From Amoebophrya sp. A120 (taxonomy: Eukaryota > Protista > Dinoflagellata), in the NCBI GenBank assembly GCA_905178155.1, contig CAJINV010000001.1:7385794-7449793 (forward strand): DNA of 64,000 nt, in the 5' to 3' direction. The notes below the pieces were generated by a model, which was not told the origin of the DNA, searched no databases, and saw only the letters and a list, made by a program, of their open reading frames with translations. Shown here piece by piece: positions 14,625 to 54,200 of the stretch. The position numbers were made by a program, and so were the translations under genes. The first letter of the stretch is position 1. Each line of letters starts with the position of its first letter.

Positions 14625-17600
14625 CTACACCCGGACACCGTAGTCAAGCCCCTGACCACCCGCCGCACCGCCGCTGGCCGAAACGGTATCAAATGCAAAA
14701 ATGTCTGGGTCTGGAAGATTCTGAGACTTGTCACGCATGTTTTTTTTTTTTTTTTCATTGGGCCCCTCATTTTTGCCGGATTCGGATTCGGATGTGCGCA
14801 CTCCGGTCGTGATTCGCCGGGGGTTACGCCGCGTACAGCAGGTCGACACTGCCAGGAAACTCGATGTGCGTGCCGCATTGGTCCATGCAAAATAAAACCC
14901 TAAACCCGCATGCCTACAGGGGGGTCACCCCTGCACCCTTTCGAACTCGGACCGGACACACGCATAGAAAATCCCCACGATATAGTTAACGTCTATAGCC
15001 GGAAGCCGCGGCGGACGTGCTATGCTGTGGGACGAATAGCAGGGGGGTGATATGGTCGAGAATAAATCTACACACGGGAAGCCGCCGCGCGAAACTGTAG
15101 TGAAAGTTTTTTCGAAAAAGTTTTTCAAGCCTATGACGGTTCGTATCTCGGTGGTACTACGCGAAGGCCATGCAAAAGAGTTTTTGCGACCTCCATGTTG
15201 AAAAATCTCGAGCGGAATCTGCAACGACCGTCCCGGCCATCATGTCACGGAGATACTCGCGCCAAGGTTGCGCCGCGACCAACCAGTTCCTCACTTTTCA
15301 GTTTCAGTTTCAGATGCGCATTCCGCTCGTGATTCGGCGGGGGTTACGCCGTGTACAGCAGGTCGACACTGCCAGGAAAATCGATGGGCGCGCCGCATTG
15401 GTCCATATAAATCAAAACCCTAAACCCTTCGGAAACATAAATCCGCATGCATACAGGGGGGTCACCCCTGAACCCTTTTTCGAACTCGGACCGGACACAC
15501 GCATAGAAAATCCCCACGATATAGTTAACGTCTATAGCCGTAAGCCGCGGCGGACGTTGCTATGCTGTGGGACGAATAGCAAGGGGGGTCGATATGGGTC
15601 GAGACTAAGCGCGATGTGCAGAAAGCCGCTGCACCTGACGGTAGTAAAGATAGGGGGGAGACCACTGTGTATGGAGATAGTTGCGCCTAGTGCGCGCTAA
15701 TCGGGATCTGTGTAAACGCGGATACTGGGAACGCCCTATGCAAACGGGTTTTGCAAACCCGCGTTTGAAAAACCCAGCGGGAAACACGACCGAAGCCAGA
15801 GATGCGTGGTGCGGAGAACATACAAAAACGAACCACGCGGGGTGCCCCCGCGACGAACTTTTTTCGCGCGCTACTGTCCCCCGAAGTAAAGGGCTTTCTG
15901 ATCTCAGATACTAGCCATAGGGTGCGATCAGACCAGACGCCAATAATAGAAGCCGCGCATCCTGACGAAGGACCTTAATAATAATTTGCCATGTAAATTC
16001 ATCACTAAGCTAGGAGGCCAGTGGGCGTTACTTAGAATGTGAATCAGTTCTACGAATTCACCTGCCTGCCGCAGCAGGTTACACAGGGCCGACACCTTTC
16101 ACACAGCTAAGCATTGCGGTGTACACCATCTTTTTTTGATTTTTGTTTTCTTACTATCGACGCCCGGCCTTGCAGGGCTCTCGCCCTGTCGTCTCTTGGG
16201 CTGTATGCTGCTTGACAAGTGGCACTTAAGTTCTTTTTGTACTAGGCTGCTTACATTCTGCTTAATTTATTTTCATACCTGTTACTCAATATCTTTGCTG
16301 CTCGACATCAAATACAAGTTTATTTGCAGGGGTTGGTGCAGACAAAGATAGAGAGTGACGGGTGTAGCGCATAGGATACAAAAAGAGCAGGATGAAAGCA
16401 GCTTTTCCTGAACTTATGTGTAATCATCATGGGCATAAGTATGTCGCTCATTATTTTGGAAAGTTTAAGGCTTTCTTTTTTATGAGATATATGCATTTCA
16501 CTTTCTTGGAAATTAGTTTTTCACTTATGCTGATTGAATTTCTGTCACCGTTCCAGATGGTTTCTTCGACTTCTTTAGCGCTTCATTTGATCACTTGCGT
16601 TGCAGCTCTGCATGGCAAACGCGATGTCCGCGCTGATTGATCTCAGTGCTATCTGTTCTGCATTTTTTCAGGGTATCTCATGCAAAAAGCCTCTATTCGT
16701 TTCCAAAATAATTATCGTATGCTGAATAGCAGCAACTTTTTTCCGCCGGATTCTTACCTTTGAGCAAGTACTGTTCTGCAAGATGCAGAGGCAGAAGAGA
16801 AGACGAAATCTGCCACGTGGCAGTGAGAGACCAGCTGCTACTTGTTGCACCATCTTGATTTGTGAACTCGTATTAACATAGTGCCTTACTTGAATGCGAA
16901 TCTTGTGCAAGATAAATGCATGCTTTTGCAATAGGCGCACTGTTTGTAAAGGATGACTTGTCACGCATGTTTTGCATGACCCAGGACGCCTGCAATGCAC
17001 GCCCTAGCATCATAGATTTTTAGAGGGCTTCCTGATGCCTACTCCGCATGACAAACGCTCTCCCCGCGTAGCACAAACTAGACTCCTCTTGCTGGTCATG
17101 CAATACAGACTTTTTTAGAGTCCAAAGTTAGCATCACAAGTTTCAACCTTCCAGACCCAGACATTTTTGCATTTGATAAACGGGCTCCAGGCCCGATATG
17201 CGCTCCTCCAGTTGCTTCACCTGGCTTTGCTGCTCCGAGGCCGAGCAGGTGAGCTTTTTTTCGACCTGCCAGAGCTTGACTGCGCCGTCGGTGTTGCCCG
17301 CGGCGAATCGTTGGCCCGACTTTCCATCCCACACCCCGCAGAAAAACGCGCTCTTCGCGTGCTTCGTACTCATGCTCGGCTGCTCCAGCGATTCGTTCAG
17401 GTGCCACAGCTGGCACAACCCGCTGGCGTCCACCGTCGCAAACACCGCCGGGTGCTCCGGGTGCCACTGCACGTCGGTCACGTAATCCTCGTAGTGCTGC
17501 CACTGCAGCAGCGGGCTCTGCGACTTCTTCGGCGCATACAAGTGCAGGCTCCAGTCGAACCCGCTGGTCAGCAGCAGATCGCCACAGCTCGACGACACCC

Positions 17601-19765
17601 GCGTGTTGATTGCCACATTTGAAACCTGCTTGTCACATTGCAATGTTGAATGGGAAGACTTCGAACGAACAACTTTGAAGATTGCGATATGATGTTGACC
17701 GTATCTTCGACCAAATAAACCAATCACTGCCAGAACAAACTTCAGGCAGCTGCCGAGCAGAAAGGAATAGGAAACAAGGAAAAAGAGTAAAGAGAAAACG
17801 ATGAAAGCCCATTACAAGAAAAAAAAGGTAGCAGCTAAGAAACTACCAATCCCAGATGCCCTTCGAGGGAATCCACAACGCCGGACTTGTTTTGATGAAT
17901 CTGTACTTGACAAACAGAACCGTCCTCGGCGCCGGTCCAAATGGCATTTTCAGATCCAAAAGCCATCGAGTTTACTACGAGGTCCCGGCTGCCCTTGCGA
18001 AGGTCGACGCATTCCTGCGGAGTGGTGATTACGATTATTGACGTCTTTTTTTAATAAAACTAAACATCATTCCAGAAGGGCTGACGCTGACCGCGTTCAA
18101 AAATGACAGAAGTATCAATTACTCAAGTCCTATAGTCTTCGCAGAAAATCACAGAAAAGCAGTATCTTTTCTCTGTGTGACTTGTACCAACCTGCGGATG
18201 CACGAGCATGGATAAATTCCAGAGACACAGTCTTCCATCTGTCGATATTGAAATCAGTTCACCGCCGCGTGCCCCTACTTGCTCCATGGCGTAGACAGGA
18301 TGCGCATGTCCTCTACCAGAAATCAAGGCGGTGCGCTGAACCTGGAAAAGTAGTTCGAAATAGAGATAAAAAAGTCGAAACATACACACGGCATCCAGAG
18401 TCTTCGCAAAACAACATAATTCTGGCGTGGACACTGAAAAAGACTCTTCCTTTCCCAGTGCCTGCACTTTCTCGCGAATAAAAATCTGGTACTACCGGGA
18501 CGCGCCTGTTCGTTCGAGAGTCCCACAGGACAATGCTGCCGGAATACGTCGACCCCAAATAAAGAGCGGGATTGAACTTATCGAACCTCACACTCAGCAC
18601 TTGAGACCCTGAATATGGATTTTGATGTTAGTTAATCATAATTCGCCACGAACCAATTCTTCCGCAAAAAGCAAGTAGTAGTAGTAGTTTTCAGGAGAAT
18701 ATCATGACTAGAACCACGAGCAGACAGGGGTCGTTTGTGCCACACTTCTAGTGCCAGCATGAAACCTGCGGTGAAGACGAACTCCGGACGATTCTGCAAT
18801 GCGAGGTTCCAAACACAGACCACCCCCTCGTCGTCCGATAGCGTCGCGTTCTTTTTCGGTCCGTAGGACGCGCAAAAAAGCTCGGGGAAATGCGGGCTCC
18901 ACTGCACGTCCGTGGTGGTCCGGTCCCGCGTCCAGCGACTACTTTCAAAATCCGCGATTTCCACCATCTCCTCGCCGTGCTTCTCCCCTTCGTCCAGCTC
19001 GTGCTGGTAGTCGCGATCGAACAGCGCCTCTGTCTGCGGCGCGGCGAGCAGTTTCTCGATCATTTTCGAGGATTTCTCGAAAAAGGCCACGAACTCGGGG
19101 TTCTGCAGCACCCTCGCACTGTCCTCCTCCGTCATGGGTTCTGGAGGTTTTTTCGGCACAAGGGAACTCGCAGCTCCTGCGGTGTCGTTGTTCGTTTTGT
19201 TCATCTTATTTCCAGGATCTCCTAGTAGTAATCGTGCTTCGTCATTTTGATTCTCCCCCAGCCCTTCTGTTGACGTTGCAACTGCCTGCGCCCCAGTAGA
19301 GACTGCTGCAGAACTGCGACCCTGCAGTTTATTTCCCGCGGCGCGGGCAGCGCGGGCACCAGGGTTGTCGTCCGCCATAGAAGTACCATCATCGCACGCA
19401 AAATCATCGGCCCCCGCCTGTACGCCCTTTTCGTACGCCTCACTCGTTTGCAGCGGCGGGATGTTCACTGAAGCGAGCTTCTTCACCACGTCCAGGTTCG
19501 ATGGCCGGTGCAGCGTCGGCGCTCGTGCAGGGTCCTGGTCCGCGGCGGAAAAGCGACCGGGCAGGAGTTCATTTAGCACCTCCTTGTAGGACTTGCGAGT
19601 CGTGGTGTCCCGGGTGGTCCCTTGCTGCAGGCTGGCGCGCTGGGCCTCCAGCTGCGTCGAGGCGCGTTTCAAGGCCTCGACCTTCTCCCGCTGCTCCTCA
19701 AGCTGCGCGCGCCGCTGCGCCTGCAGTTCCTGCAGCTCGGCTATACGGTCCCGCGCCGAAGACAT
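14625..19765 (-). CDS. DYNC1I: Cytoplasmic dynein intermediate chain (WD40)
   Basis: N-terminal coiled coil and motifs [100 protein letters not shown]. Four GT-AG introns plus introner 14687-17178; last exon [21 protein letters not shown]. Confidence 0.92.
14744..16954 (-). mobile_element. Retroposed non-coding insert with poly(A) tail and 15-19 bp TSD, nested in an introner
   Basis: GACTTGTCACGCATG(TTTT) duplicated at 14725-14743 and 16955-16973. T16 run at 14740-14755 is a minus-strand poly(A). No long ORF. Confidence 0.82.
14765..15603. repeat. Two ~300-bp imperfect direct repeats (~14765-15062 and ~15288-15603)
   Basis: Long identical blocks, e.g. TACAGCAGGTCGACACTGCCAGGAAA and TTTCGAACTCGGACCGGACACACGCATAGAAAATCCCCACGATATAGTTAACGTCTATAGCCG. 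Confidence 0.9.
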
Positions 19766-20426
19766 CCGGTACTGTGTTGCTGGTTCGCCTGATTCAGTGC
19801 GCCTCGCGTGAACAATTACATTTTCTCCTTAAAAATAGAACCGCAAAATTGCGATGCAATAATGATACTCGAAATTATGGGGCACGTAAAAATCAGAGCG
19901 ACGTGCAATGGTGAAGGAATGGGCAAAAGATGAAATTATGAAATGAGAGCAATGTGTTTTTGTAGTACGCGGATTAAGTATGTTCCTTGCCCACCACAAA
20001 TCCGCATTAGGTAGTGCACGAGGGCAATGATATTTTCTATACGAAAACGAAATGTCAGCACTTGAGCACAATAAACTACAACATTCCTTAGTCAAGGAAG
20101 CATGCACAAAGATCTAGCTACACCGACCTCCAAGAACGATCTTTGAAATTGATTCGACGTACTTGCATTGCCGGTACGATATTTACTATCGCCAACCAAC
20201 GACACAACGGAGCAGCGAAAATAACCGAACACATTTGTTTTCCCAGCAGAAACTGTCTATTCTCAGCTCGTAGCGCAAAGGCGCGACCTCGATACTGGCC
20301 AATGCGTCGTGGTCGATATCTTCGACAGCAATAGTGTACTTACTAGCTGCTAAGCTTCAGCAACATGCGTGTTCATCATGTAGTGGAGAAACCCAAATTC
20401 TCGATGGTCATTTGTAAGTGTAAGTG

Positions 20427-22255
20427 TCAATGCGCTGCAGCCCTACCCCCGGCAATACGCCCGCGCGACCTCTTTGAGGACCTTTGTGCCAGAAGCGTTT
20501 GCGCAAATTGCTCGCGCACACCGGGGTTCGTGAAGAAGTAGCAGCACGCATTCAGAAATCCCTGTAGCCCGCCGAAAGTGACCGTCAGAAAGTCAAGGAC
20601 GTACAGGCGTACCCCAAACCAATTCAGCAAGCGATTGAGCGAGCCGAATGACCAGCAAAAGACCAGCAGCAACGGGAAATAGAAAAGCCGCCGGAGGTTG
20701 CGCAGCTGCGCTTGCCGAAGCTGTGCCACTTCGTCTTCTTCGAGGCTACGAACGACGCGACCCTTGCTGTCAGGCTGGTGCTTGGTTCCGGCTATTCTCG
20801 GTGAAGTCGGACTGGAGGACGGGCTCAGCGACGGTGAGAAATTTACAGTGACGTTCTCGCGAACTAGATTCCCGGAGGTGGGCCCACGATCATTGAGCGG
20901 ACGACCCACAACCACCGCGGATTCTACCGCCCCGGCATCCAGTGGCCCGCTACTCTTGCTGAAAAATTCCTCGCGGCCTGCCGACGTTTTTATCATTTGC
21001 AGCCGGCTGCTGCTGCTACTGCTCACTTCCGCGCGGATCGACGAGGATGCGGCCGCAACTTGCCCCGTGACGATGTCTTCTGTCCGGCGGTCGGCAGTAG
21101 AAGCAACTTTCGGAGCTTGTGGCCGCGAATTGGATGTTGCTCCTCCTGCGGCAGTGCCATTAGACCCCGATCGCCCTCCACTCTCATCCCGGCCGACGCC
21201 CTCGGTTGCAGACGAAGCGGAAGACGCACTGTCTCCCTCCGCCGTCCCTTGGCTTGTTGCCAGCACCGTATCGCCGTCCAACACCAGTTTTTGCGTCCGA
21301 CCGTCCATGGACAGATTCTGGTCGACCAGTTCGGTGGTCTGCACGGCGATCTGCGTCACGTGAGAGGAGCCGTCCATTGACGCGTTGAATTCCTCAGCGT
21401 CCTCCGACATCAGCAACCGCAAGCGCTTCGTCAGTGCGAGGTACACGTACACGTTGTACAGCGAGGTGGCCCAGAGGGGCACGTAGAACAACAGAAACCG
21501 CAACGCACTCCCGTAACTGTTCCGCCCCTGAATCCAGCACCAAAACCCCGCGGGCCCGTATCCGTGCGTCAGAACGACGCACAAGGTCACGCCGAAGGGC
21601 ACGCCCCAGCAAACCTGTCTTCTAAGTACATAAAGACGTTCTATTTTGGTATTGGTTTCTTCGTGCACTATGACAGAAGAACTCTTGTTCTCAGAGTATT
21701 CAAAATTCATTCGAAAAAAACTTGCGAAATCAAATAACCCTGGAACAACACCTTGTGCATCTTCGTTTCCACTTCCATCTCCTTGAAGGACGGCGTCTGC
21801 TTTCCCCGAAACAACAGAAGGCGCAGAGAGTGCGAGATGGCGCTACTCCAGAGAAAGCTCGCGAGACTGAAGAACACGAAGAACGTGCTCTGCACGAGAC
21901 AGCCGGTGGACGAGGGGTTGGGAAAGTGTCCGATCACGGACGCACACGCCAGCCACATATCCGCGATGCTCAGGTAGAGAATCAGGCGCGTGAAGAACTT
22001 TCTCAAGTGCGGAAGGAGCAGATACCCGCCAATCACCACCTGGCAGGACGCCATCGACAGGGCCGAAACCAGCAGGTTCACCGATCGCAACAAAGGGTAC
22101 TCCTCCGCGACTGCAGGGACGAGCAAAAAACGCAACGCATCGTGGTAGGAGCTTTCGTCCTCTCTTGCGACGCCGTCGTAGTAGTTGTCGTCAGCAAGAG
22201 ATGAAACTGAAAAAGGCGGCATAAGAACCGCGTTGGCGACGGGCGAGGACATCAT
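20427..22255 (-). CDS. GCR1/cAMP-receptor-like seven-transmembrane protein
   Basis: Motifs RLILYLSIAD, C-x-VQ...SLASFLWS, YGPAGFWCWI, LFYVPLW, RLFYFPLLLVFCW, LQGFLNA. One GT-AG intron (KMHK-VCWG). Long Ser-rich third intracellular loop. Confidence 0.88.
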
Positions 22256-22893
22256 GAAAGCATCTTTATTCTCTTTCACCGAATTATTCGCTCGTGCAAC
22301 GTAGGAAGGATAAGCGGTGAGGGCAGCAAAGATGCAATTCCAGTTGATTTTCCAAAGAGAACAAATATGCCAAAACAAAACTAAGTATGGGGGCCCTTAC
22401 TCCAGACAAGTACCACGGGATTTTGGGATGAACGTGAACTGGACTTGTTTCGGAACGACTTCAGAAATAGCTTACATCCGCGCCAATCGCGCTGAAGTTC
22501 TTGTGGTTCTGCCATGATGCCAGCACTTAAAGTTTTCAATTCATTTTCGCCAGAAGCTGCAACTAGTCATGTTGCCAGGCACAAGGTGTATCAATTTGCT
22601 CAGTACATTTTTACTACAGAAACATCGTACATCAGAGCCACTCGCTTCTATTCATGTGTGCCTTGTCTTAAACGCTAAGTGTCATTGCAAGTACTATAGC
22701 CACTACCCGAATTATCACCAATTTTCTTCAGTGCTTCCAATTCTAAAAACTACAGTAGAGTCTTGAGGTAAAACCACTCCGGCTCCTACGTGGTACACCC
22801 TCCTACGTGGTACACCCGTACTGAGTTCTGCGACACGCAGCAGCACGTAAAACAAGCCCCATTGAAAGAATTCTGCCCCGCGCAGTACTGCCC

Positions 22894-23127
22894 TCACCAG
22901 GTCGGATAGCTGCAACTGAGTCGTCCTGCACAGGCCTCCTGCTGCCCCTTTCCACAAGAAGCCGAGGACGCCTGCTCCCCGAGGAAGGGACAGTGCCGGC
23001 AGCCGAGGTTGCAACATGGGCCCTGCTTCAGACGCGTCGTAGTGAACACGCGGGCGCCGGGATCCGGATCAATGTACTGTTCCCGTCCCTGCATCGTCGC
23101 AACCCGGTGCAACAGCGTTCGCGTCAT
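22894..23127 (-). CDS. Small Cys-rich DUF5522/C1orf53-like protein (may extend 5' to ~23421)
   Basis: LHRVATMQGREQYIDPDPGARVFT...GPCCNLGCRHCPF fits the YxDP..G..VFT...CCxxGCRHCP pattern. Confidence 0.7.
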   Translation of the reverse strand: MTRTLLHRVATMQGREQYIDPDPGARVFTTTRLKQGPCCNLGCRHCPFLGEQASSASCGKGQQEACAGRLSCSYPTW

Positions 23128-24281
23128 AGCGACTTGCTTTGTCCTATCTTCTGAACCCCGAGTATCAATAAAATTTAGTTGCCGAGCTATTCCTGCATTC
23201 TACGGCTCCGCCTGCTCCGCTGCAACACATCGCACTTCCGCCAGCGTCAATGGTGTCTTTGAAAGAGAAACTTTCACCGGTTGGAGAGCGGTCGCGCCAG
23301 CGGACGAAGCGCAGGACTTTGGTGATGAACTGCCTTCGGAGCTAGTGCTACGCGCACATGTGAGTCGCGGGAGAGCGCCGAAGGACGCAAGCAAGCAAAG
23401 CAAGTGGATCATTTTAACCATTGTTCTGCAACAATGAAGTAGTCCTTACGCAAAAACCCTGGTGTGCTCTCCGTGGGGCCTGGAAGTTGTATACGACAGA
23501 AATCTGCGAAATGTGAGGAAAAGCATCACATTTGAACTCGCGTGCTGGCGCCGAAAAAGATCGTCTTTTGCTCTTTGGAAACTACAGGCTGGGAACGCAA
23601 TCGCAAACGCTATAGCAACATAAAAAACGCTGGAACGAAGTGTGGCGACTTTGCTCCAGGACCCACAAGAGTGGTGCTGAAATTCGCACCAATCTGCTAA
23701 CCAGCCTCGACCTCCACGGATATCTCACTTAGCTTACGCCCTAGAAAACCCAAAATTTTTCGAAAGTAAAATCTGAGACAAGAAAGGCACGACAGACTCA
23801 CATCTTGTGCTGTTGGATCGCGGAGTACGAGTACTCACTAAAATGCCGAAATAATAAGCTGACGGAACAAATCCAGATGCCTATTTTGCAAATCGTAATG
23901 TTGACAACCGTCCCAACGCCGTCACCCAGCTCTCCGGCAAGTGCTTACTTTGGCTTTGCATTGAATAATTGCTGACTTACTTCGTGTCTTGCCAAAACCA
24001 AATCAGAAGAGAAAATCATAAAGACGCACCGCATGCACACTGGGTGTGACTGCAAAGTGAAAATTGTAGACATTCAATTTTTGACTTGAAGGCAAATGCC
24101 CTTAATCCAAAGGAGGGCGTTTGAGAAAATTACGGAAATGTTGTCTATTCGCGAATGCAACTGCATGTTGTATTTGCATGAAAAGAAGAATGGTAAAACG
24201 CAAAATAGCGGTGGATGCAGAGGTGTTACGGGACCCGCCTGAAGTGACTACTTATAAGGCGGCATCAAAAAAGTGCCTCAT

Positions 24282-26573: not shown

Positions 26574-27008
26574 AAAGTACGCAATTGCGGTTGCTGCCTA
26601 CTGTAGCTATGGGAGCGAGTGTCCAAGGCCAACGCTGGAAACGGCGGAAGTGCGAAATTCTTCGTCTGGAGTGGCTGAAACGCACTGCTGGCGCCGGAAT
26701 GCTGCGGAAAATAGTTGCCAGCAACGTGTTGTGTTGCCACTTCTGGGGGCTCAACTGCAGTCACCTGTTCCGTCAAGTGAAATTGATGCGAGCCCGCGGA
26801 GCACGTGGAAACGGCTGGGGAAAGCAGCCCGGATCGCGACCTGGCATTTTTGTTCGCGAATAAGTAACTAGCTTATACGCAAAAGGAACAAAATGAAGTC
26901 TGGAATTGGATAAGGAAAAGAACAAGCGTCACTTCTATATTGCCGAACTTCATTCATGAGCAGAGTTTGGAGCTAAACCTAGCAACATCGTAGAGAACTC
27001 TGCTGTTT

Positions 27009-32471: not shown

Positions 32472-32583
32472 GCTTATCGCAGGAGCCTGCGGGCCGCCGC
32501 GGGCTCCACCACTTCCCCGCGGCCCTAAAGGGCCGCGGACAACTACTGTCGCCCGCGGCGGCCCGCAGGCTCCTGCGATAAGC
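32472..32583. repeat. Perfect 33-bp inverted repeat enclosing a 10-bp-stem hairpin
   Basis: GCTTATCGCAGGAGCCTGCGGGCCGCCGCGGGC at 32472-32504, its reverse complement at 32551-32583, and inner CCGCGGCCCT-AA-AGGGCCGCGG. Confidence 0.85.
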
Positions 32584-33481
32584 NNNNNNNNNNNNNNNNN
32601 NNNNNNNNNNNNNNNNNNNNNNNNNNNNNNNNNNNNNNNNNNNNNNNNNNNNNNNNNNNNNNNNNNNNNNNNNNNNNNNNNNNNNNNNNNNNNNNNNNNN
32701 NNNNNNNNNNNNNNNNNNNNNNNNNNNNNNNNNNNNNNNNNNNNNNNNNNNNNNNNNNNNNNNNNNNNNNNNNNNNNNNNNNNNNNNNNNNNNNNNNNNN
32801 NNNNNNNNNNNNNNNNNNNNNNNNNNNNNNNNNNNNNNNNNNNNNNNNNNNNNNNNNNNNNNNNNNNNNNNNNNNNNNNNNNNNNNNNNNNNNNNNNNNN
32901 NNNNNNNNNNNNNNNNNNNNNNNNNNNNNNNNNNNNNNNNNNNNNNNNNNNNNNNNNNNNNNNNNNNNNNNNNNNNNNNNNNNNNNNNNNNNNNNNNNNN
33001 NNNNNNNNNNNNNNNNNNNNNNNNNNNNNNNNNNNNNNNNNNNNNNNNNNNNNNNNNNNNNNNNNNNNNNNNNNNNNNNNNNNNNNNNNNNNNNNNNNNN
33101 NNNNNNNNNNNNNNNNNNNNNNNNNNNNNNNNNNNNNNNNNNNNNNNNNNNNNNNNNNNNNNNNNNNNNNNNNNNNNNNNNNNNNNNNNNNNNNNNNNNN
33201 NNNNNNNNNNNNNNNNNNNNNNNNNNNNNNNNNNNNNNNNNNNNNNNNNNNNNNNNNNNNNNNNNNNNNNNNNNNNNNNNNNNNNNNNNNNNNNNNNNNN
33301 NNNNNNNNNNNNNNNNNNNNNNNNNNNNNNNNNNNNNNNNNNNNNNNNNNNNNNNNNNNNNNNNNNNNNNNNNNNNNNNNNNNNNNNNNNNNNNNNNNNN
33401 NNNNNNNNNNNNNNNNNNNNNNNNNNNNNNNNNNNNNNNNNNNNNNNNNNNNNNNNNNNNNNNNNNNNNNNNNNNNNNNNN
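32584..33481. other. Assembly gap (N run)
   Basis: Run of n characters. Confidence 1.
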
Positions 33482-35150
33482 CTTCATTTCTGGCCATTTC
33501 CCTGACCTTCACGCCTCCCGGCGGTTGCCCTATATGGTAACGGCAACTGCCTTCGCGCTGCGTTTGCTAAGCAATATCGCAAGCGCGCAGAGCGCGCGCG
33601 CCGGCTTCGTGGGCCGGCGCGCGCTCTGCGCGCGCGCGCGCACGCATTTGGTTACCAGATCACTCCAACTTTGGCATACTATGTTAAGCAAGAAGAAGAA
33701 CAATCTAGCGATTTACTCAAAGACGAAGATATCGTACGTCGAGGTCGGCTGCTTCCTTGGCGTCGTCCTTTGGCAAAAATCTTCGCACCTCGGGATCGTT
33801 CACTATACTAGTGGACGATGTTGCGGCTTTTTTCTTTCTCAGCTCGACGATTCTGTAGAAAATTTTTGCGTGGAAATAAACATAAAGTGTGTACGGTTTT
33901 ATTAGAATTATTGCAGCACGACGAAATGGGTGAGCACGCACGCAATGCCACTGAAAGTGTCCTTGTCTAAATTTTGCACGACTGAAAAACAAATGCAAGA
34001 ATACTTGTCGACTTCCTTGTTCTGATTCGCACTGACCGTTGAGAAGCCATCATCGTTCGCCTTGTAAAAATCCAAGCTAAACTGCTTGCTGTTCTCGAAC
34101 TTCTCGGTCATTGTAGAAGAGAGTAGCAACCCAAGGCGCGGTCGTTATTCACAACGTGCAGTGAGTAAGAGGCCGAGCCAGAGCAACTTACTGGAACCTC
34201 CAGAGCCACTTACTGGAACCTGCAGATATTACTTTGGCCTTTCGATGATCCACGGTTGCCGTCCGGCTCCGAAGGTGGAAGGAAGTTGCAGGGACTCGGA
34301 AGTAGACCGGGCTGCGCTTTCAAGAAACTAGCAGAGATGTGCCAGTGTCACACTTGAGTTGCAAGAACTTCTAAGTTTAACAAAACGAAATTTTTGCAAT
34401 GTAGTATTTTACAGGAGGAGTACACAAAAGATATCACGTTAGTGCTGTATGTTGCACCGTCAACAGTTCAGGTCCTGGGCTCGAATTTGAAATTCGATCG
34501 ATGTTCAACTAATGGTGTACAAAAGAAACTGCAGCGTCAAATAACCTGTCCTAGAATATTACCGCAAAAACGCATCTAAGATGGGACAGTCGTACTCGTA
34601 GTTCTTCACTGGGCTCGCAATATTGGAGTTCCGAATTTTAGACATGTTACGACTAGTGGACGTACGAAACGACAGCGCCCGTCTCTAAAAAAGTCACCTC
34701 GACGCGGTATCACTCACGATGCAGTCACAGCTTCAGTTTCTATTCCGAGCGAACGAATCTTTCTCGACGACGTATTACGTGGCGCAGAACCAAAATTCCA
34801 AAACATCTACGAAAAAAAGGGAAACGCACGAGCCCGGTTGCGACGAACTGGCAAAAGTTTGCAAAAGTGATTGCACCTAGCACGCGAGGACGGACGCCTG
34901 GAAAAGTTCTTGCACACATCAGTCGGACAGAAGACGGAAACGCGATGCATTTAAGTATGTCAATTTTCCAGTAAGCACGGTTGGACTGTTGACGCAGATT
35001 AGAACACATTTTTCTGTTAATCCGCAACCTGGGCGGTGCTTTCCAGCTGCTCAAAATAATCACCTCGCGAAACTGTCACAAGCAATCTCGGCGCACTATC
35101 GCGCTGTTTTTTAATGTTCACCACGACTGTCTAGCCCGTAAAAAAAATGC

Positions 35151-38751: not shown

Positions 38752-41700
38752 CTACCCGGAGAAGAGGGGGTCGCGCGCGCGTCCGGCTGCCTTGGATCGC
38801 GCGTTCGCGTTGTCCCCAAACAGGCTGGCGTTTGGCGGCTTTCTGCCCGAAGACTGGCTGGGTCCGTCTTCGAACAGGTTGGCGCCGCCGCGGTTCGCCG
38901 CCGCCGGCGCGTTTCCGAACAAAGTGTTTGCCGCACTTTGCGGCTTCCCGCCGCCGAACTGCTGTTGCTGCTGTGGCGGGGCACCAAACAGACCGCCCGC
39001 GGCTGCCTGTTGCTGCTGAGCCTGGAACTGCTGCTGCTGGTGCTGCTGTGCCTGGAACTGCTGCTGCTGCTGCGGCGGTGGCGGGGGGACCCCCGGCTGC
39101 TGCTGCCCGAACTGCGACTGGTTCATCATCTGCCCTCCTCGGGGCATTGGGTCAAAGCCGCCACCGCCTCCCATAGGCTGCTGCATGTGCTGGTGCTGCG
39201 GTGCTCCCCCCGGCATGCCTCCGCGCGGTACACCGCCCATTGGAGGCGGAGCTGCGGCGGTTTGCGGCCCTGTGTAGGGGGACTGTCGCGCGTTCGCGCG
39301 GCCGAATAGCAGTTCCTGGTACAAAGAGTCGAGGCCCTGGTCCGCTTCGCCGAGCTGCATCTCGATGTCGCGCGACAGCACCTGGTGCGCCTTCTTATCA
39401 AAATGAAAAATCCCCCCTCCCCATATCAAAACGGAAATTTGTGATGCTGATTTGTGGCCACAAATCAGCTTTGTATTGCACAGAGGCACTGCGGCCAGAT
39501 CCCCAGGCGAGGCAGGGCCGTATGGGTATAGTAGTTCAGCATGGCAAACGGCCCCCCTTTAGCCCGAACAGCATGACAAATCGCTTCCATAATGGGGCGG
39601 AAGCTTCTGCCCTTGTCTTCTTGCAAGACAGACGTGATTTGTGACCTCAAATCCGCAACACAAATTTCTGGAAACATACCTTTTCAATATGGGGAGGGGG
39701 GATTTTTCCTCTCAATACTTCTTGATGATGGTTTTCTGCTCCATCAGCGACTTACGCTCGTCGCGGATGTATCAAATGTAAAAATGTCTGGGTCTGGAAG
39801 AATCCAACTTGTGATGCTGATTTTGGATTCTAAAAAAATCTGTATTGCATGAGCAGCAGAGAGTCCAAGTTTTGCTATACGGAAAGAGCATTTGTCATGC
39901 GGTATAGGCATCAGGAAGCCCTCACAAAATGTGTGATGCTAGGGCATGCATCACAGACATCAGGAGTCATGCAAAATGTGCATGACAAACCTGGCAATCT
40001 TCCAGACCCAGACATTTTTACAGTTGATAGGATGTGGGCGGGCTCGGACAAAATGTTGTCCAGGCTCTCGGAGCTCTGAAAGTTCTGCGTTAGCGTCAAC
40101 TTCAACTTCTCTTGGAAACTCCGCACTAGAAAACACCCAATCGCCTTCGGTACTGCCTCCCGCAACGAACGCACCACCTAAGCAGAACTTGAAATGGATG
40201 CGGCTATGCTTCTCTCAAGCGGCCCTATCAGATTTGATATCACAAGGGAGGACACGACAAAAACGATCAAATGCTGACATCTAGAGCAGCACAATAAAAA
40301 CCTCGATCAAAATACCAGTTTGAAGTAGGCCTCCAGGCGGTTTCGGATGTCGCGAAGAAAGGCCTGACTGTACTTCGACTGGAAATTTTTGGTTTTGTTG
40401 CCGGTGAGGTAAGCTTTGGCCTCGGCATACTTCTGCGACATGTTGTCCTTCATTTTGTAGTACCCGCCCACGTTGGGATCTTCTGCTTCCTCCTGCATCT
40501 CTGCCGCCTGCCGATTTGCGATGTCCGCAGCGGTGCCGCCGCCCCCAGAACCGCCAGCCGTGGGTTGCATCGCACCGTGCGCGATCAGATACAGGTCGTC
40601 ATTTGTGAAAAAATAACCTGTCGTGAGTGAATGGGTAAAGGTAAAGGTCTAGGAAAAAATCAAAAATTTGTCCTCCTGGTTTAAAAATATTTCACATCAA
40701 AACATACCTGTTGCGCTGTTGACCGCGTCCTCGACGATGGCTTTTGTCTTAAGCCGCTCCTCGTCAATAATCCGGTTGGAGAGCTCGAACACCTTCTCGC
40801 CCAGCTCGGGGAAGCGGTAAAAAACGAGCAGAGACACGCGGTGCGCCAGGCCCGACATGCACTGCACCGTGTCCGCCAGGCAGTCCAGCGAGGGTTGCAG
40901 CAGCTTGCTGAGGTGCGACGAAATCAGCATCTCAAACGTATCGGGACTGGGAAACCCGGGGAGTGCGTCACCCTCCAGGTTGCGTAAACTCTGGTTGATG
41001 TCGTCATCTGGTTGCGAATTTTTTGCTTAAAAACGCGTTTCCGGACTAGCAAACTCAAAGTTTGAGAATTCCTGATCGAACAACCACGCTGGCTTGCATG
41101 CGGTACGTGAAAAACATTCGCTCCTGCGTGAAGAAAGTTGGTGAAAAAACACATCATCGATCTTCGTGTTCGGAACTTTTCAGAATGAAAAAGCAAAGCA
41201 TAAGCATTACTCTGGTACTTACCTGTGAGGTCTTTTGTGATGTCCTCTTCGTAGATTTCCTCCAAGAACTTAGAAAACCTCCTTTTGACCTGGGCCCCCA
41301 CGGATGGCGCCTCGTCGCTTTCTGATTGGTACTTCTCTATCAGGGCAGAGAGCTTCGGGTCATACTTACCTGTGTTTGTGTGCGACGCAGCAAAATCTCC
41401 TTCTTCATTCGTGCTGCGGCAAAAAAAAACATGGGACCACCCATACATGGATTCTTAGAGTTTACTTCGAAAGTGGTGTAATATCAGTCCGCTCCTTGTA
41501 GTCGGCGTGCCTCGTGCCACCTCCGGCTACCCGTCAACAATAATCCTCTTACGTCTAAAATGCCTGCTGGGCCACATTCATCAATTCATTGTAGCGGAAC
41601 TGAAATTTTATTGCCCGATACCTTTTATGGAATTGTCTATCATCTCGCAGAAGGAGGCGATGTCGCGCCATACGAGCTGCGTCTTCACGTTAGAGTCTTC

Positions 41701-45285: not shown

Positions 45286-48200
45286 TCATTTGCGACCTTT
45301 CCTGTCCGCCCTGGAACCTTGACCCGCTTGATACCGCCTGTCTCTGGAACCCTTTCCCTTTCCTTTTCCGTGTGACCCCGCTTCGGAAATTTGCTGCGAA
45401 GGGTTCTGCGGAGGACCACCGAAGAAGGCACTCTGTCCCCAGCCACCATGCATCTGCATCATCGGGTGAGGCGGAACAGCATATGGGAACGCGTTTCCCC
45501 ACCCTTGTTGCGGACTGACCCCCCAATTTGTATACGGACCGATTTCCGCCGCGCCCCCCATATTTGGCATCTGCGCCTGGTACGCCTGCGGACTCGTCGG
45601 ATCAAGTGGTCCATCCGGTATCGACCCCGGAATGAAGTACACCGGCGCGACGATCTGTGCTTCGCCGGCAGCGGGCGTTGATCCCGCACTGGTGCCGTGT
45701 GCTGCCTTCTTCGGCCGCGCGTTTAGACGGGTGCGCATCCAAGATTCGTCCGCGTGGCCCGTCCCCTCCTGGGCTGTACTCCTGCCCGAGCGCGCGGTGG
45801 CCCAGCTCTGTGCAGAGTGCGCCCCTGAGGACCCCGACTCTGGCCCCGCCGATCGCGTTTGCGGTGCCGGCGTGCTTTCTGGAGGCTGCGTTTGTGCAGG
45901 CGTCTCGGGAGCGGGTTCGAACGGATCGTCAGCCGTGTCGTCGGAGTCTGAAGCGGGGTCCGGAAGGGACAACCCCGGCGGCGGTCTGAAGGGGTGGCCC
46001 CCGGTATTTTGAGGAGACATCGGGTCTGACAAAATCGACACCGAGTCTTTGGAGGTCTGCCGGTCCGGGAGCTGCAATTCAGGATCGTCGACAGAACCGT
46101 TTCCAAGATCGTTCGAAGAAGCACCCGGAGCGCTGGCAGATTCGTCGACACTCTGCTCTGGAGTTCCTTCGTGTTCTTGCTCCAGCATCAAATCGTCAAC
46201 GGACTTGCTGGACTGCGCGACAGTCGCAGTTGCGGGGGTCGTCTGCGACCCTTTTCTACCTTGTTTGCTACCCAGGAATGGAGACATCAAAGGTGGAAAC
46301 TCTGTGGGATTGCTGGCTGCTCCACCTGCGGATTCGCGCGGTGGGGCAGCGGGTCTATCGTCCCACACCCCTAGCACATCTTTCATCACGGGTCCGTTAT
46401 TCATAAGGACGACTCTTTCGTCTCCACTTTCACCTCCGGCGGAACCCGGCTGACCAGCGTTTGCTTCCTCGTCATCCGCTGGCAGTCCGGCAATAGGAGG
46501 TGGCGCTGGCGGCGATACCCGTTGCAAATCTTTCCGCTTACGCCGTCTGCCCGGACAGGACGAGGCTTGCGACAGCGTCGGGCCCCAGTTGGCGTCTCCA
46601 CTCAAGGCGCTGCCGCGGCTATCAGGGTTAGTTGTCTTCCAAACACTAAAATCGGAGGCGCCACTGCCGCTGGCGGGCCGGTCTGGGACGTCCCCGGAAA
46701 AGAACGGGGCCTCGACTCGAAGACCACCGGCCTGCTCAGCGATAGGCGACTGCAAAGGCGCAGGTGAATTCCGCAAGTTCTTCCTGCCAGAAATCGAGTT
46801 TGAAACACTTGCAGGTAGGGACAAGGGCTTCCCTGCATGCACCTCGTCACCAACTCGTATGCAAAGAAAATCTCGATGGTGAGTGATGGAAAGCTCTTTC
46901 GTTCGATCAGGTGTGGACTTTCTGCAACACTGTGGCGTAAAAAAATTGAAACATCATGCGAAGAACTCCGTGCGTAACCTTCGTACTTCCAACATGCAAA
47001 GTACCCGGAGAGAGATTCATGCTGCTCCTTGACGAGCGTATGATTAGATGATTCAATGGTACGAACAAAGTCGTCGTGCCGGCAAGAAACGCTACTGCTT
47101 GTATCAAGATGCCACAACTACTCCACCGCTGATGAAGAGCAGAGCATCCAGCACCCCAGCACAATTCCTTCTGCAAATACATAACTCTCGCATGGTCGTC
47201 TGAACCGAGGTTCCCTCGCGGAGATGAATCATTACTTGCGGCCTGTCGTGCAGCATGGGACGTGTCCGTAACTGCCAGCTCGGCCATGGCATCCACGATC
47301 GATTTGACGCGAACAGCACTGCCTTTCGCTGACTCCTGCAAATCCGCGACCTGTCGTTCAGGCGAGATCCCCGGAGGAAGCACCGGCGGCGGGCTACTAA
47401 GCATACCGCCGTACCTATGCCTAGCCCACGGGGGCAGCGATTCGATCGGCAACGGCGAAATTCGCGGAGGATGCGACGGAGGCGGGTTACTGGGCACGCC
47501 GACGACCGGATTCTGAGGCACCGTCGCTGGTTCGCCACTGATGTGCAAATGACCTTCCGGACCCACAGGACCAGTTTCTCCGACAAGTCCCGGCGGTGGG
47601 CCCACCAACGTTGCTACGCCCCCGGGAGGTGGCGGCGGAGGGCTGTGCGCTGGAGGTGGCGGACGCGCGTCGATGCGGTGCTGCAAAGTCGCAGGTTGTC
47701 CGTCGATTCGTCGCCCCGGATGAGCGTCGGGTAGCTCCGTCGTGGCGGAAGCTGCTGCGCCGGCCTCGCCCGCCGCGGAGGGACTTGATGCGTGTTCTCC
47801 CCGGGGACCACCAGGAGAAGCGGTTTTTGGCGCATTACCTTGCAGCTGAGCCTCGTCGGTCATTTCGTACCAAAGCGGAAGCACCAGGCGGTGTGGCTGC
47901 CACGAGGTCGGCGTGAACGGACCGAATCGGTTGACCACCTCCGGATGGTTGTCGTAGTGGTCCAAGAAGGCATGCCACACGTTGTTGTTTTGCGCCGGTT
48001 CGTTGCGAGTGGGGACCTGCTCCTGCTTTTGGCCTGCGCCGGCTCGCGGCACGTGCAGGTCTTTCGTCCCCGCGAGGCCGAGCACGTCGCAAACCACGAT
48101 CACCAAGTTCTTCGCGCGCGTAATGGCGACGTTCAACCGCGACTCGTTGTTCAAAAAGTCCCGCACCGACTTAAGACCCCAAGGACGCGTGCGCGACACC

Positions 48201-51200
48201 TCCACGATAATGACTTTCTTTTCGCGGCCCTGAAACGCATCCACCGAGGACACCTCCACCGCGTCCCCGAGCGACGAGCTGCCCCCCGAGCTGGCACTCG
48301 CAGACTGCTGCCGCTGGTCCAAGTCGTCGTCAAAGTCGACGGACACGCCGCCATGGCTCGCCAGGCGTTCGCGCGCGGCACGCACCACGGCGCGCAACCC
48401 GGGCCCGAGAAACTCCGCAATGGAGGAGTGCGTGCGGTGCAGTTTCATGGCAAGCGAGGAGGACACGGGATCAGAGCTTCTGCCCGGCGCTGCGGCAACG
48501 AATTGTTCCTCGCTGGGAAGATGGCGCACCTTCACACCCGTCAGGGCGAAGAAGTCAGCGACACCGTTATGCGCGGCAAACTTGGGTCCAAAGCGGTTCA
48601 CATCCGGCAGGCGTATTTTCAGTTGCATCCTTCCGGCAGCGTCCGCCCACGCCGTCAGTACCAGTGCGGGCTCCAGCGGCCGGTCCGGCTGCAGTCGCGT
48701 GGGCAACTCGAAAGACGACAGGCTGCCGTCCGGCGAGGCGGTCCACTGGACCCACGCATCTCCTGCTTGCATTAGAGCCTCCGGCTCGCTGACTCCGGAC
48801 GATCCGCCCAGGCGGTCCGGATCAGAGCCCGGCCCCTGCCCCGGTCCCCGCAGAAAATACTTGCGCGCGAAGTAGATCATGAAGGAACGCTTCTGCTGCG
48901 CGAGGTGCTGATCCTTCGACAACCCCGCACCCTTCGTGGCGTAGTAGTAGCTGCTTCGCGGTGCGGATGCTTCAGCCTGCGCAGGGTCCAGCTTACGCAG
49001 TGCCTGCTTGTTCCCGCCACGCTTACGCGCCTTTTCGTACTCCACAGCTGCGGCCGCGTCCACCTGCATGGGGAGGCTCTGCTGTCGCGTGAGCAGACCG
49101 GCGGCCAGCTGGGCGTAAACCAGCTGCAGCAGTTGCGACCAAAGCGGACCTTCCCCCGAAGTAGATGGGTCCGCCTGCGCCGCGGCCAACTCCATTTGTG
49201 CCTTGTCATGAGCCTGAAACAGCCACTCACCGGCCGGCGACAAGGACAGCATTCGCGCGATCTGTGCCCAGCGCGCGGTTGCGCCGGCATCTTCTAAGTA
49301 CGGTGTTGTGACGGGCGATCGCAGAGCAAAATGCCGGCCGTCGGCATTCTCCTTCAGAAACAACGCAATCCAATCGTCGAAACTTCGGCACGATGGCTCA
49401 GGCGGAGCTCCCGCGTCCACGTCCATCGGGGCGGTGTAGCTTCTTCCACCTCTTCCCTGGGGTGATGCCGGTCGCGGCTCTCGCGGCTCCCCCGAAGCAA
49501 GGTCAAAATGCTCCACAAATCTGCGAAGCGCACTGAGGGTTCTGTCCTCCTGGTCCGCCGCATATGCATACCCGACGCGCCGCTCCTCGTCTTTTAAAGC
49601 GCGGTTCGCAGGCGAGATACCTGTTTCGTCGGGAGACTTCTTCAAGTGCGCGTAAATTTTCACTTCATATCTTTGCTTCGGCACCAGGCCCGAGACCTCG
49701 ACCTCAGCCCGTGGCGACGACTCCGTGGGAATGTAGTCGGACATCTTCTTGTTCCGCAGCAGCACATCCGGATCTTCTGAATCCCTTTCGCCTTTTCCCG
49801 CAAACTTGTTTTTTTCGTACCACGCGCGCATAAGCGAGCGACTCACGTCCAGCGGAACTCTGAGCCAGGGGCGTTCAGCCGCAGCCCCGCTCGTTGCCTC
49901 AAGTCCCCCGTTCAGAATGCTACGCGCGGCCTCGCTCCAAATCTTTCCGTCCACGCGAAGAGCCGTAACCTGCGCAACAATCGCCTTTGCAAGAGTTCGG
50001 GAAACGAAAACGCACCCGACCACCGGCCCAAACCGGACGTGCCGCGAAAGAAGATCCTCCTCCTGGAGGGGATGATGGCTGCTAGACGCCGGCGTGTCTG
50101 GCTGCCACTTGTAGCCGAAATTGTTCGGGAACAGACCGTCCAACCCCCCCGCGGCCCTGAAAAGATCCCGCAGGTGCTCATTCGAAGGCACGTGAAGCAG
50201 CTGAAACCCCGTAGACTTCGTCAACGTCGTGAAACCTCGGAAAGCATGAGTGACCCACACCGACGAGGAGGTGCCACTTCCGTCGGGGTGCCAATCCTCC
50301 GCAACGACGAGGTGGCTCGGCACGTGTAACTGCACACGGTCGGGAAAGGCGGCGTGTGTGCGCCCCTCATCCGCCACAATACTCTCTTGCAACCGTTGTT
50401 CCAGACTCAAAAGCGGTACACGGACCGGCTCCTGATCGCGCCTCTCATCCGGCGGCGGGTCCTGCCCCGGCGCGCGCTGATCGGCGAGACGCGGCAGAAT
50501 CCAGAGGCACCTCCGCAGCTTCTCCTGCACGCCGGTGCCGTCGGGCGGCGCGTTCTGCTTGCCCTGCATATAATTCCAGCACTCCTGCATTTCCGCGCGC
50601 GCCTGTGCCCCCTTCCTCTCCGCAAAGTGCGGCGAATACGCCCCACGGTCGATAATATGTTTTGCCAGTCCCCACGCAGTCACGCGTAGGTCCCAGGACG
50701 CGGAAAACACTTTTTGGTAGAAATTTTCGGCGTCGCCGTACTTTGCTTTGATTTTTTGGTCGACCGGTAGCGCCACGGAAAACCAGCTCTGAGCCTTCCC
50801 GGCGTCCGCCGTCCAGTCTGAGTAGAAGAAGCGGTCCAGCCACGCGCGTACATCTGGAAGCCGCTCGGTGAGCAACAGGTTCAGATCGGGGCCCAGAGGC
50901 GACGACGCCAGCGTCGGGGCCGCGGGGGCCGCCGCTTGATGGCGGTCCGCTTTTTGTTGTGCTTCTTCAACATGTACTGCTGGGTCGTTCGCCGCGGTGG
51001 AAGTTGCAGGTAGGTGCAGAAGCCACGGCCGGTCCTCGATCAGAGGCCGCAGCATCAGGTGGTCCACGCCCTGCATGAGATGGCGAAACGCACTGCTCTT
51101 CTCCTGGACTGCCATTTGCGCGACTACGTGGTTGTGCTGCTGCATGTGCTGGCTGATCATGATATCCCACGCGCGCTCAAAAAACTCAACTCGCGCTTGT

Positions 51201-54200
51201 GCCTGGTCCTCCGCAGACATCTTGGACCAGACCGAAAAGGGCTTGGCCACCAAATAGGCCGGCACTCCGCGGTCATAGTGGCGTTGCACGACCTTTCGCC
51301 TAGCCGCGTTCGCCAGGGGCGACGCAGAAGTCGTTCCTTGCTTTTTCCTATCAAATGTAAAAGTGTCTGGGTCTGGAAGAATGCAACTTGTCATGCTAGA
51401 TCTGAACCTTCGCTACCTGCCATACTCTAAAGGAGTTTTTTTCTGGCTTGAGGACCCCCTCCCACCCCCCCGATCTCGGATGTGCGTGAGCCCATAAAAG
51501 TCGTGAGACTTGGACATGCAAACTTGCGTGGGTGCTGCAGAGTCGCATGAAAAACAAAAAACTCTGAGCGGGCTGCACCACACATGCACGACCGAACGAG
51601 TAGGAAGTAATCGACAAGAGGCTGGAGCTAGAGGTGTGCGGCACCTCAGGTAACTTGCATTGGCGACAAGAAGATGAAATAATTTTGTTTTTTTGAATTG
51701 TCAGACATTTGCGTATTACGGTACAAAACAGGTCAGCACTACCTCGATTGCGGTGCTTGCAAAGCGAAGCGGTAGCTGTAAGATGGATTTTTTGTTTGTC
51801 ATCATGGAGCTCTAGTATGTCCACATGAGTGTCGCCGGATCTTAGGGCCCATCTATGCACCCGCCTGGTGGAGCACGCTGTGTGCTAGGAACGGGGCCGG
51901 GCATAAAAAGCGGGGTGCGGCCCCTTGAATTACGTGGACTTTTTTCATGTATGCAGCCAAAAACGTCGTGTGTATTGCGCGGGGTGAGTGGATGGAGTCC
52001 TTGGGTGCGGCCCGCTGGAAACCACCACAACACCCACCTTGGCGCTGGTAAACAGAAACTGGGCGCTTCCGGGTGCGGCCCTTCAGCAGGTAAATATGGC
52101 GGCTGCCTTCAAGAGTAGTAAAATGTAGGAGCTAAAAGCCAAGAAGTATCTGTCAAAAACCCACCCAGCTCAGCCCGTTGGCAAGACGGAAAAAAAAACA
52201 TCTGCCCCTGCAACCAACAAATGCGGGATCCGCCACCTAGCGCTACAAAGATTCCAGAAGTAAGCAAGACGACACGAGAGAAATAAAAGGGTAGAGACCT
52301 AGATCTACGTGGGAACACGTGGGAACGCGGGGGGAGCAGGGGGAGCGGGGACTTCCGCTACCGACAGCATCGGCAGCGAGGCCTAACGCCCCTCTGGGTG
52401 TGAGAAACGAGGGAGGCACCTATAGACAGTCAAAAGACCATCCAGGATTGAGGAAGTGAGATTGGTACAATAAAATGTGACCAGGAGCGACTTGTTAGGA
52501 ACACTCCAACAACCTCTACCTACCACTGCCCTCGATTTCACTAAAGAGAAAGCCGAAGCTGACTCACCCCGAGTACGCTTCCCGAAGTCAGCTCATCCGC
52601 CCGTTTCCAAGAGCTGACAACGAGGCAATGTCCTGAGGGGCCGTTGCGAACCTCCCCAATCCTGAACGTCATGTGGTTTCAGCTCTTAGAAACCGGCTGA
52701 CGAACGAAAACGCACATCTCTGTACCCAGTGGCAAGTACAAGAGAGGCAGGGACATAGGGAGCACCGAACCGCACATCCAACTCGACCCTAGGTAACCCA
52801 GAGATCCTAGTCCCGGGAATCTTGGGGACCACGCAACAGACGAGCGGCAAAACAAGGAAGGAAGCCACCACCAGCCAAGCAGCACGAGAGCGACAGCGAG
52901 GGGGTCTTGGCCGAAGCCGCTGACCCGGGAGCACCTCGCATGAAGCTCACACACCACAAGTCCCGGAGCAAGCTCCGATGGCGCCACCAACCCGTCTACT
53001 CACCCGAACGTGCAGGGGGCGACGACGCCGACCAAGCGAGAGCCTCACACAACGGGAATTTCCCGCAAGGCCTAATCGTCGACCTCGCTCACTGAGATGG
53101 AGGCGAGAACGGTCTCGGTAGGTAATCCAAAATGCGACCAGAACCAACCAACCGGACGCGGGAAGCGGCGACGACACACGCACTACGACGGGCCCAACAG
53201 ACACCTACCAGACTGACCTCCTCTATTTGGGAGTCCGCGCCAACTCTATTTGGTGGCGGTCGGGTCAGGGCTCAATTTGGCTCATCTGACTCAGTCTGGG
53301 GCGCGCTGTAGAAGGCAAGGCGCACATGCTAGATCTGAATTGAATTGAATTGAATTGAAGTAGCGACGCCCCCTGACGTGCCTCGGTAGCCGATCGCTCT
53401 CTGAAGCATGTAAAAATCTGTGTTGCATGATTACCAAAAGTCGTCCAGTTTTGACCAAATCGGGAGCGAGTTTCTCATGCAGGATAGGCATGAGAGGGAT
53501 CGCGCAGAATCTGTCATGCGAGGTCCTGCGTTCCAGACCTCACGGGTCATGGAAAAGCTGCATGACAAATCGCGCATTCTTCCAGACCCAGACATTTTTG
53601 CATTTGATATTTCCACGACTTCGATCCAACCATTTCCGCACTGAGCTGGGCGCCTCTGCGCTGCGACGCTGTGTAGTCCTGCACCGTTTTGGAGAACTCT
53701 AGCGCAAACTGCCACTGACGCCCGTCGTTCGTCTGTGTCAGTTGGTATATTTGCTCGACCAAAATGCGGACGAGAGAAAGCAGAAAGCCGGTGCCTATAG
53801 TCCGCAGGTACTGCGCGCTATACGCCAGCCTCCAGGCAACACGGCGCTCCTCCGACCCGTCAACGGTAGTGGGAAGCAGAATCGATTTCAGGGAACCCGG
53901 AACCCCCTCGGGCGCTCCGACCGAAAGCACCCGCGCGACGTCGTGTAATTCAGAAAAAGTTTTCAGAGTGGTCTGGGCCTGGGGGACACTCGTTTGTTCT
54001 GCGTGGTCTCCACCACCAATCACCCCAACGGGGTACTTGGGGACGATACCGCCTCGGCGTCGTAGTTCTTCATTCCCCTCCTGCTTTTTTGGTTCATATA
54101 CGTGAGTCTTCACTACTTCCAGGAGATCCTCGGTCAAAACAAGTCCCGAGTTTCTCTGTACCACCGTGGGGTTTGCGTGTGCTTTGGCCCTTTCGTGGAT

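Follow-up and report, generated by a model that had tools for sequence, protein, structure and literature searches.

Family-A introners and their inserts in Amoebophrya sp. A120

The stretch of DNA analyzed here, called the window, comprises 64,000 nucleotides of contig CAJINV010000001.1 of Amoebophrya sp. A120. Accordingly labelled is a protein to which one of its dynamin exons shows 100% identity (Amoebophrya sp. A120), compared to 89% for A25. It contains four copies of a miniature inverted-repeat transposable element (MITE), termed family A, which is about 262 bp long and has terminal inverted repeats (TIRs) of about 30 bp and a 5-bp target-site duplication (TSD). According to the accessible text of two previous studies, A120 introners start with TAT, followed by seven bases and AAA, and have 5-bp direct repeats (3-5 nt at exon borders) and non-canonical borders (PMC7789003, PMC12130899); about 30,000 such introns account for 17% of the genome (PMC7789003). 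The ends of family A, with TAT-starting inverted repeats and direct repeats at the exon borders, fit this motif (PMC7789003). Two of the four copies are interrupted by further insertions, named W1, A and B. The features are as follows, offsets being counted in nucleotides inward from an introner terminus.

14687..17178, minus strand: family-A TIR introner, interrupted; 262 bp when empty; outer 5-bp TSD 14682-14686 and 17179-17183
14744..16954, minus strand: insert W1, non-coding and in sense orientation to the host gene, with a poly(A) tail (T16 at 14740-14755) and a likely 5' truncation
14725..14743, no strand: TSD of W1 (19 bp), left copy at offsets 39-57; the right copy lies at 16955-16973 and precedes GCATG
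51349..53609, plus strand: family-A TIR introner with two interruptions at a single site; empty length 262 bp; outer TSD 51344-51348 and 53610-53614
51407..53324, minus strand: insert A of 1918 bp, a repeat lacking both a tail and a recognisable open reading frame (ORF); putative 3' end at 51407
51392..51406, no strand: TSD of insert A (15 bp), left copy at offsets 44-58; the right copy lies at 53325-53339
53340..53399, minus strand: insert B, a 60-bp 3' end with a (TTCAA)4 tail; 6-bp TSD 53334-53339 and 53400-53405
39770..40029, plus strand: intact family-A introner of 260 bp, the orientation reference
54899..55170, plus strand: family-A introner with a 16-bp duplication, otherwise intact
17146..17811, minus strand: host exon of a WD40 protein, upstream of the 14687 introner; its frame resumes in 14625-14686
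46910..51343, minus strand: host exon with an AAA_12 helicase domain, downstream of the 51349 introner

The insert coordinates of the initial annotation all hold: within two introners of 262 bp, W1 lies at offset 57 (range 53-57, since TTTT merges with the T tail) and A and B at offset 58. All three TSDs are perfect. The three insertions had been described as sharing one position, but A and B occupy one site, so that the window holds two sites and not three. The equal empty length, correct for both copies, is the commonest length of the family (26 of 110 intact copies). The two host copies are indeed oppositely oriented, being 74% alike when one is reversed versus 61% in the forward comparison. 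The local sequences at the two sites had been regarded as different; GCATG follows both empty sites, however, and pairs with an upstream CAYGC. Both sites are the 3' loop edge of this CAYGC...GCATG palindrome, which has a loop of 7-10 nt; the palindrome of the R end folds as an 8-bp hairpin (z about -2). The host genes of both introners run on the minus strand, and excision of the element plus one 5-bp TSD leaves their frames open.

The copy at 54899 shows a different kind of alteration. Its 16-bp duplication (54942-54957 and 54962-54977, offsets 44-59) flanks four extra bases and is unique at 16 bp among 140 family-A copies; it is possibly an aborted insertion or a break scar at the hot spot.

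Recurrence of the hot spot in a sister lineage

A family-A TIR scan of metagenome contigs, covering 22 of 64 parts (about one third) of one record set, yielded 139 loci. They comprise 442,005 unique bases on 112 contigs with 333 TIR ends, 81 of them unpaired. As the loci were selected via the family-A TIR, the share found outside introners is not a genome-wide figure. A long ORF from the loci was 81% identical to its A120 orthologue, which indicates a sister lineage as their source, possibly a mixed one. MITEs cover 24% of the long loci (family A 10%, other MITEs 14%) compared to about 4% of the window. In viral contigs, no stretch matched the TIR pattern.

Twelve family-A copies in the loci were interrupted, and nine of these could be assigned an offset from the tail-side junction. 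Among 21 candidates inspected in other introner families, two were tailed (L018, L076) and three unclassified (L059, L094, L041).

L036, offset 53-57: poly(A) class; 3' end and 264 bp in common with W1 (15990-16252, 86%)
L052, offset 53-57: poly(A) class; 19-bp TSD ending at 57
L117, offset about 57: poly(A) class; position deduced from the 5' junction, which over 67 nt resembles the L052 insert's junction at 73%
L073, offset 60-61: 805-bp insert whose 3' end matches B at 97%
L034, offset 110-113: 80% match to the 3' end of B
L103, offset 41-44: (CCAA)n-tailed insert; L125 is the empty twin with the same flanks on another contig (coordinate 301 in both)
L124, offset 48: same insert family as L007 and L035
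L007, offset 128: same insert family as L035 and L124
L035, offset 188: same insert family as L007 and L124
L018, offset 211-214: other introner family; (CAT)n tail
L076, offset 58-62: other introner family with a different TIR; (TCA)n tail

Interruptions with neither tail nor TSD polarity were left out of the offset counts (L019, L075 and L090 in family A; L041, L059 and L094 in other families), as were the duplication at 54899 and a scar in L013. Contig ends at offsets 56, 56, 56 and 61 were left uncounted because an assembler word length near 55 would mimic them.

Four of the nine newly assigned family-A inserts lie at 53-61 nt (p = 0.0004-0.006 under a uniform model), including all three new members of the poly(A) class (L036, L052, L117) at about 57. 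A peak is present, but the fixed distance of 57-58 nt proposed for all inserts is not supported: the other five family-A inserts are at 44, 48, 113, 128 and 188, and the new offsets span 44-214. The restriction to family A is likewise unsupported, as L018 and L076 sit in other introner families. Between host copies, 5-9 of 27 sub-terminal bases differ and the remainder is 70-83% alike, and every TSD is perfect and host-specific; these are therefore separate insertions and not copies of one composite. Both the hot spot and its association with introners are genuine and recur in a second lineage. The idea that inserts hitchhike on moving introners found no counterpart, no two composites in the sample sharing both host and insert.

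Some of these loci showed further features. In L007 (2447-3422), a second piece of about 630 bp is nested near the conserved end of the insert. The composite introner of L052 (4001-4972) is located within a plus-strand block, downstream of exons for RNA polymerase Rpb1. L059 (5552-6699), which belongs to another introner family, carries an untailed insert of 860 bp whose interior holds many direct and inverted repeats.

Insertion sites in relation to a CAYG motif

At all seven new sites with a visible target, the insert lies within -2 to +5 nt of CAYG/CRTG, compared to 25% of internal positions (p = 7e-5); this range was chosen post hoc, and tail pairing contributes at L034, L073 and L076. The 7-mers TGTCATG and GCATGAC are found inside MITEs in 89-90% of cases, MITEs making up 24% of the long loci. 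The family of L007, L035 and L124 inserts after TGTCAYG at offsets 128, 188 and 48, respectively, so that for this family the motif outweighs distance.

For the poly(A) class, T runs on their own fail to account for the position. Those ending at 54-60 are 12% of the family-A T runs, and the three new inserts of this class all used them (p = 0.002). TTTT(G/C)CATG sites are concentrated there (39 of 65 at 53-60), which suffices to account for the class (p = 0.22). Six of the nine sites use motifs starting at 44-64, compared to an 18.5% share of CATG sites (p = 0.002), so that position retains some influence.

In L013 (4001-4283), a 14-bp copy of nearby introner sequence and a stretch like the tail of the L034 insert are present at offset 56 from the right TIR. 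Judged by its sequence, this scar looks like break repair or an aborted insertion.

Properties of the inserts

The TSDs of the inserts are of variable length (6, 8, 13, 15, 16, 19, 19 and 21 bp), and poly(A) or short-repeat 3' tails are present in W1, B, L036, L052, L073, L034, L103, L018 and L076. Related inserts share the 3' end and differ in 5' length, as exemplified by B (60 bp) and L073 (805 bp). W1 has its segment 16629-16953 in common with a contig of the DNA run X1 that extends 3.6 kb further. The summed contig depth of insert A, which is a rough guide, drops from about 1070 near 51490 to 45 near 53250; this gradient suggests that its 3' end is at offset 58 and its orientation sense.

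In the material searched, neither reverse transcriptase nor endonuclease was detected and no autonomous element was found, so that a retroelement origin rests on tails, TSDs and truncation. These properties point to non-autonomous or truncated elements without long terminal repeats (non-LTR elements). In the accessible text of PMC7789003, A120 is reported to contain autonomous non-LTR elements. No known domain was found in the inserts tested, and insert A had no Pfam or Rfam match. Rfam searches gave no meaningful match: heads of short interspersed elements derived from tRNA, 5S or 7SL RNA were not found, and two hammerhead-like cores lacked a stem. Several 3' ends are similar, with the tail adjoining CGCTAC or CACTAC and with CCAAT or CCAA ahead of the end, pointing tentatively to a single partner enzyme or a small number of them.

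W1 contains an internal duplication (14765-15065 and 15289-15608, 85%), and X1 contigs carry deletion variants of it that join 15336 to 15990 and 15705 to 15900. The W1 sequence also contains telomere-like CCCTAAA units and, at 15296-15313, (CTGAAA)3. The internal inverted repeat of L007 had raised the possibility of a Penelope-like element, which was rejected since the repeat is a nested insertion. A 2.2-kb insert inside the TIR region of L075 (476-2934) has a 415-codon ORF with no relative in the libraries searched, and no tie to a retroelement was established.

Confinement to introners, orientation and splicing

All five additional copies of the three multi-copy insert families lie within family A. 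Within the 442 kb of loci, neither copies of these families nor a convincing TSD-flanked tailed insert turned up outside MITEs. The other cross-contig repeats outside MITEs were only one 40-bp piece and the shared flanks of L103 and L125. When 107 simple repeats were scanned for flanking duplications, W1 and L073 ranked first and the next two were candidates outside MITEs; of these, L017 was rejected as a coding repeat and L068 was ambiguous. A separate scan also recovered L052. About 30 isolated repeats of 14-30 bp outside MITEs look like tandem gene copies or internal repeats.

Orientation was determined with a codon model that gave the correct direction for eight of eight Pfam-known genes. 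Family A itself is oriented with and against genes at 31:30 (42 further copies unclear), and the T-run site occurs equally on both strands (24:23). The new inserts were sense in nine of ten orientable cases (p = 0.011), or in six of seven (p = 0.06) when the family of inferred polarity is omitted. The rule that inserts are sense to the gene and near the 3' end of the intron thus holds as a tendency but is not strict, as L117 is antisense to its host gene. This gene is presumably kinesin-like, judging by its motif. The bias may reflect nicking of the transcribed strand or selection.

A contig of X3 (record 9), which is RNA by guess only, joins 17178 to 14680 with 0 mismatches, while the DNA run X1 reads into the TIR; the 2.5-kb 14687 composite is therefore removed as a single intron. 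In the raw RNA run X10, only family-A ends were found, and for 46100-56000 no RNA record was listed. The proposal that retroelements shelter in introners gained in part from these data, the same families recurring in introners of a second genome at or close to the original offset and one composite being spliced in the RNA-like contig.

Several other features of the window are recorded here. Five further uninterrupted TIR introners belong to other families (3220-3452, 6258-6496, 39396-39717, 56276-56559 and 63378-63619). Two exons at 20430-22396 have a slime-mould cAMP-receptor-like Pfam match. At 32472-33640, a 112-bp hairpin immediately precedes an 898-base gap of N, which is followed by a GC-rich inverted repeat.

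Mechanism of insertion

On balance, and at slightly better than even odds, we favor motif-directed retro-insertion into TAT-ended introner MITEs beside a CAYG core, mostly at the palindrome 44-62 nt inside the terminus. Several non-coding insert families, likely retroelements, would be copied in by target-primed reverse transcription. A partner enzyme resembling those of long interspersed elements would nick at or next to TGTCAYG/GCATGA, and the tail would base-pair with the 2-5 nt that precede this nick. The T4 loop in front of (G/C)CATG lies at 57, which would explain why the poly(A) class lands there, and removal of the insertion along with the introner during splicing would allow the elements to persist.

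Several observations weigh against this explanation. Insert A is tailless and the L007/L035/L124 family is without a clear tail, and no Pfam match to reverse transcriptase or endonuclease was obtained with 27 frames of seven inserts (stops read through) and 133 long ORFs of the loci. Three of the six unclassified interruptions (L019, L075 and L090) are not next to the motif. The duplication at 54899 ends at offset 59 without GCATG after it, which fits a distance rule better, and TIR-proximal motifs are used beyond their 18.5% share. For (CAT)n, (TCA)n and (TTCA)n elements, pairing of the tail is by itself enough to account for a position at CATG. The sample is also limited to TIR-selected loci, 442 kb from about one third of one record set.

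Alternatively, a TIR-bound protein, either the transposase or a host factor, might recruit the retro machinery and set a distance of about 57-60 nt, which we regard as unlikely. It would explain why poly(A), TTCAA, TCA and untailed families and both ends of the consensus all give 57-62, why L076 is at 58-62 although its host introner has another TIR, and why almost all TIR-proximal inserts aim their tail at the TIR. At 54899, the duplicated offsets (44-59) also come close to those covered by the insert A TSD (44-58), and no GCATG lies downstream. Yet five of nine new family-A sites lie elsewhere, each adjoining the motif where the target is visible (in L103 via its empty twin L125), and in L124, whose host has the motif at 45-48, the insert comes after the motif. 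Moreover, the motif is present at every readable retro-insert site at 57-62, so that distance is never needed. At the peak itself, motif and distance coincide. A more elaborate version, to which we give a slightly smaller chance, has a guild of elements evolved to locate introners by docking on the transposase or a splicing factor bound to the TIR, with insertion in sense orientation about 57-60 nt inward of the end; they would be transcribed and spliced away and may ride introner moves.

It is just as improbable as this version that the sub-terminal palindrome is a fragile site, which extrudes or is nicked by the introner transposase or a host nuclease, and that unrelated retro RNAs, lacking a dedicated endonuclease, are captured at the break. 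The 8-bp hairpin of the R-end palindrome, the convergence of dissimilar families on the palindrome and the repair-like scars in two intact copies, at 54899 (44-59) and in L013 (56), agree with such a site. However, scars make up only two of eight insertions of at least 8 nt among 140 copies, and insertion also occurs at motifs that are not palindromic (offsets 113, 128 and 188). W1, A, L052, L073, L035 and L007 have clean 13-21-bp TSDs, which suit staggered endonuclease nicks better than break repair. The duplication at 54899 and the L013 scar at offset 56 keep both the distance-based and the fragile-site explanation alive.

Passive accumulation, in which insertion is near-random, purifying selection keeps the copies in introns, and T runs and tail microhomology create an apparent peak, is the least probable: introners are 17% of the A120 genome (accessible text of PMC7789003) and 24% of the loci, each tailed insert pairs 2-5 nt with its target, the TIR-chosen sample is small and the sense bias of nine in ten could be selection, but the poly(A) class used exclusively the 12% of T runs at 54-60, copies of these families were not found outside MITEs in the loci, and untailed families also adjoin the motif.

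Relation to known systems and biological significance

In Xenopus, the non-LTR elements Tx1L and Tx2L insert into the DNA transposons Tx1D and Tx2D, and the Tx1L endonuclease is sequence-specific, as far as the accessible text of PMC6719617 and PMC1950540 describes. The Amoebophrya inserts resemble them in that retro-type elements favor a site inside a DNA transposon, and sequence-directed nicking is the best reading here too. In contrast to Tx1L, the target in Amoebophrya is a non-autonomous introner spliced from host pre-mRNA, and the inserts belong to no fewer than five dissimilar families and occupy several sites in several host families. Neither ORF1 nor an endonuclease-reverse transcriptase was found in the Amoebophrya inserts, and for want of an ORF2 they cannot be assigned to the Tx1 clade. 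TRE5-A of Dictyostelium inserts about 50 bp upstream of tRNA genes via ORF1p and TFIIIB (PMC5006619, accessible text). This element is a precedent for the distance-based explanation. The two cases are comparable in having a compact genome and a peak of inserts about equally far from a landmark, whereas each resolvable Amoebophrya site has a motif and the offsets span 44-214. Tourist MITEs insert preferentially into Tourist MITEs, according to the accessible text of PMC6719617. Preferential nesting in MITEs is common to both cases, but the Tourist guest is a DNA transposon and the Amoebophrya guests have tails and long, variable TSDs.

For A120, the accessible text of PMC12130899 describes TIR-flanked introners with retroelement homology, which may be composites or Ginger-like transposons. 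Among its families, fam38 is 808-810 bp long and TIR-flanked, with LTR homology, a 5-bp TSD and TA/TA termini, and fam3 has 3852 copies and was classed as non-LTR; both could reflect nesting. The word 'nested' has no occurrence in the main texts of PMC7789003 and PMC12130899, and the family-A TIR string is absent from 13 supplement files of the latter. We found no report of introner-targeting retroelements in the literature covered, which included the accessible text of PMC7789003, PMC12130899, PMC6719617, PMC1950540, PMC5006619 and PMC3747384 and excluded subscription journals.

Few cases of transposon-targeting retroelements are known, and here the target consists of about 30,000 self-removing introns (PMC7789003, accessible text). 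Within genes of this compact genome, introners would provide a large and renewable safe harbour to several families, and would do so in two lineages. This would account for kilobase-long introners, and some A120 introner families considered 'retro-derived' may be composites. It would also show that non-canonical introner splicing tolerates 2.2 kb placed 57 nt from the 3' end, and the motif could give a handle on a new site-specific insertion enzyme.

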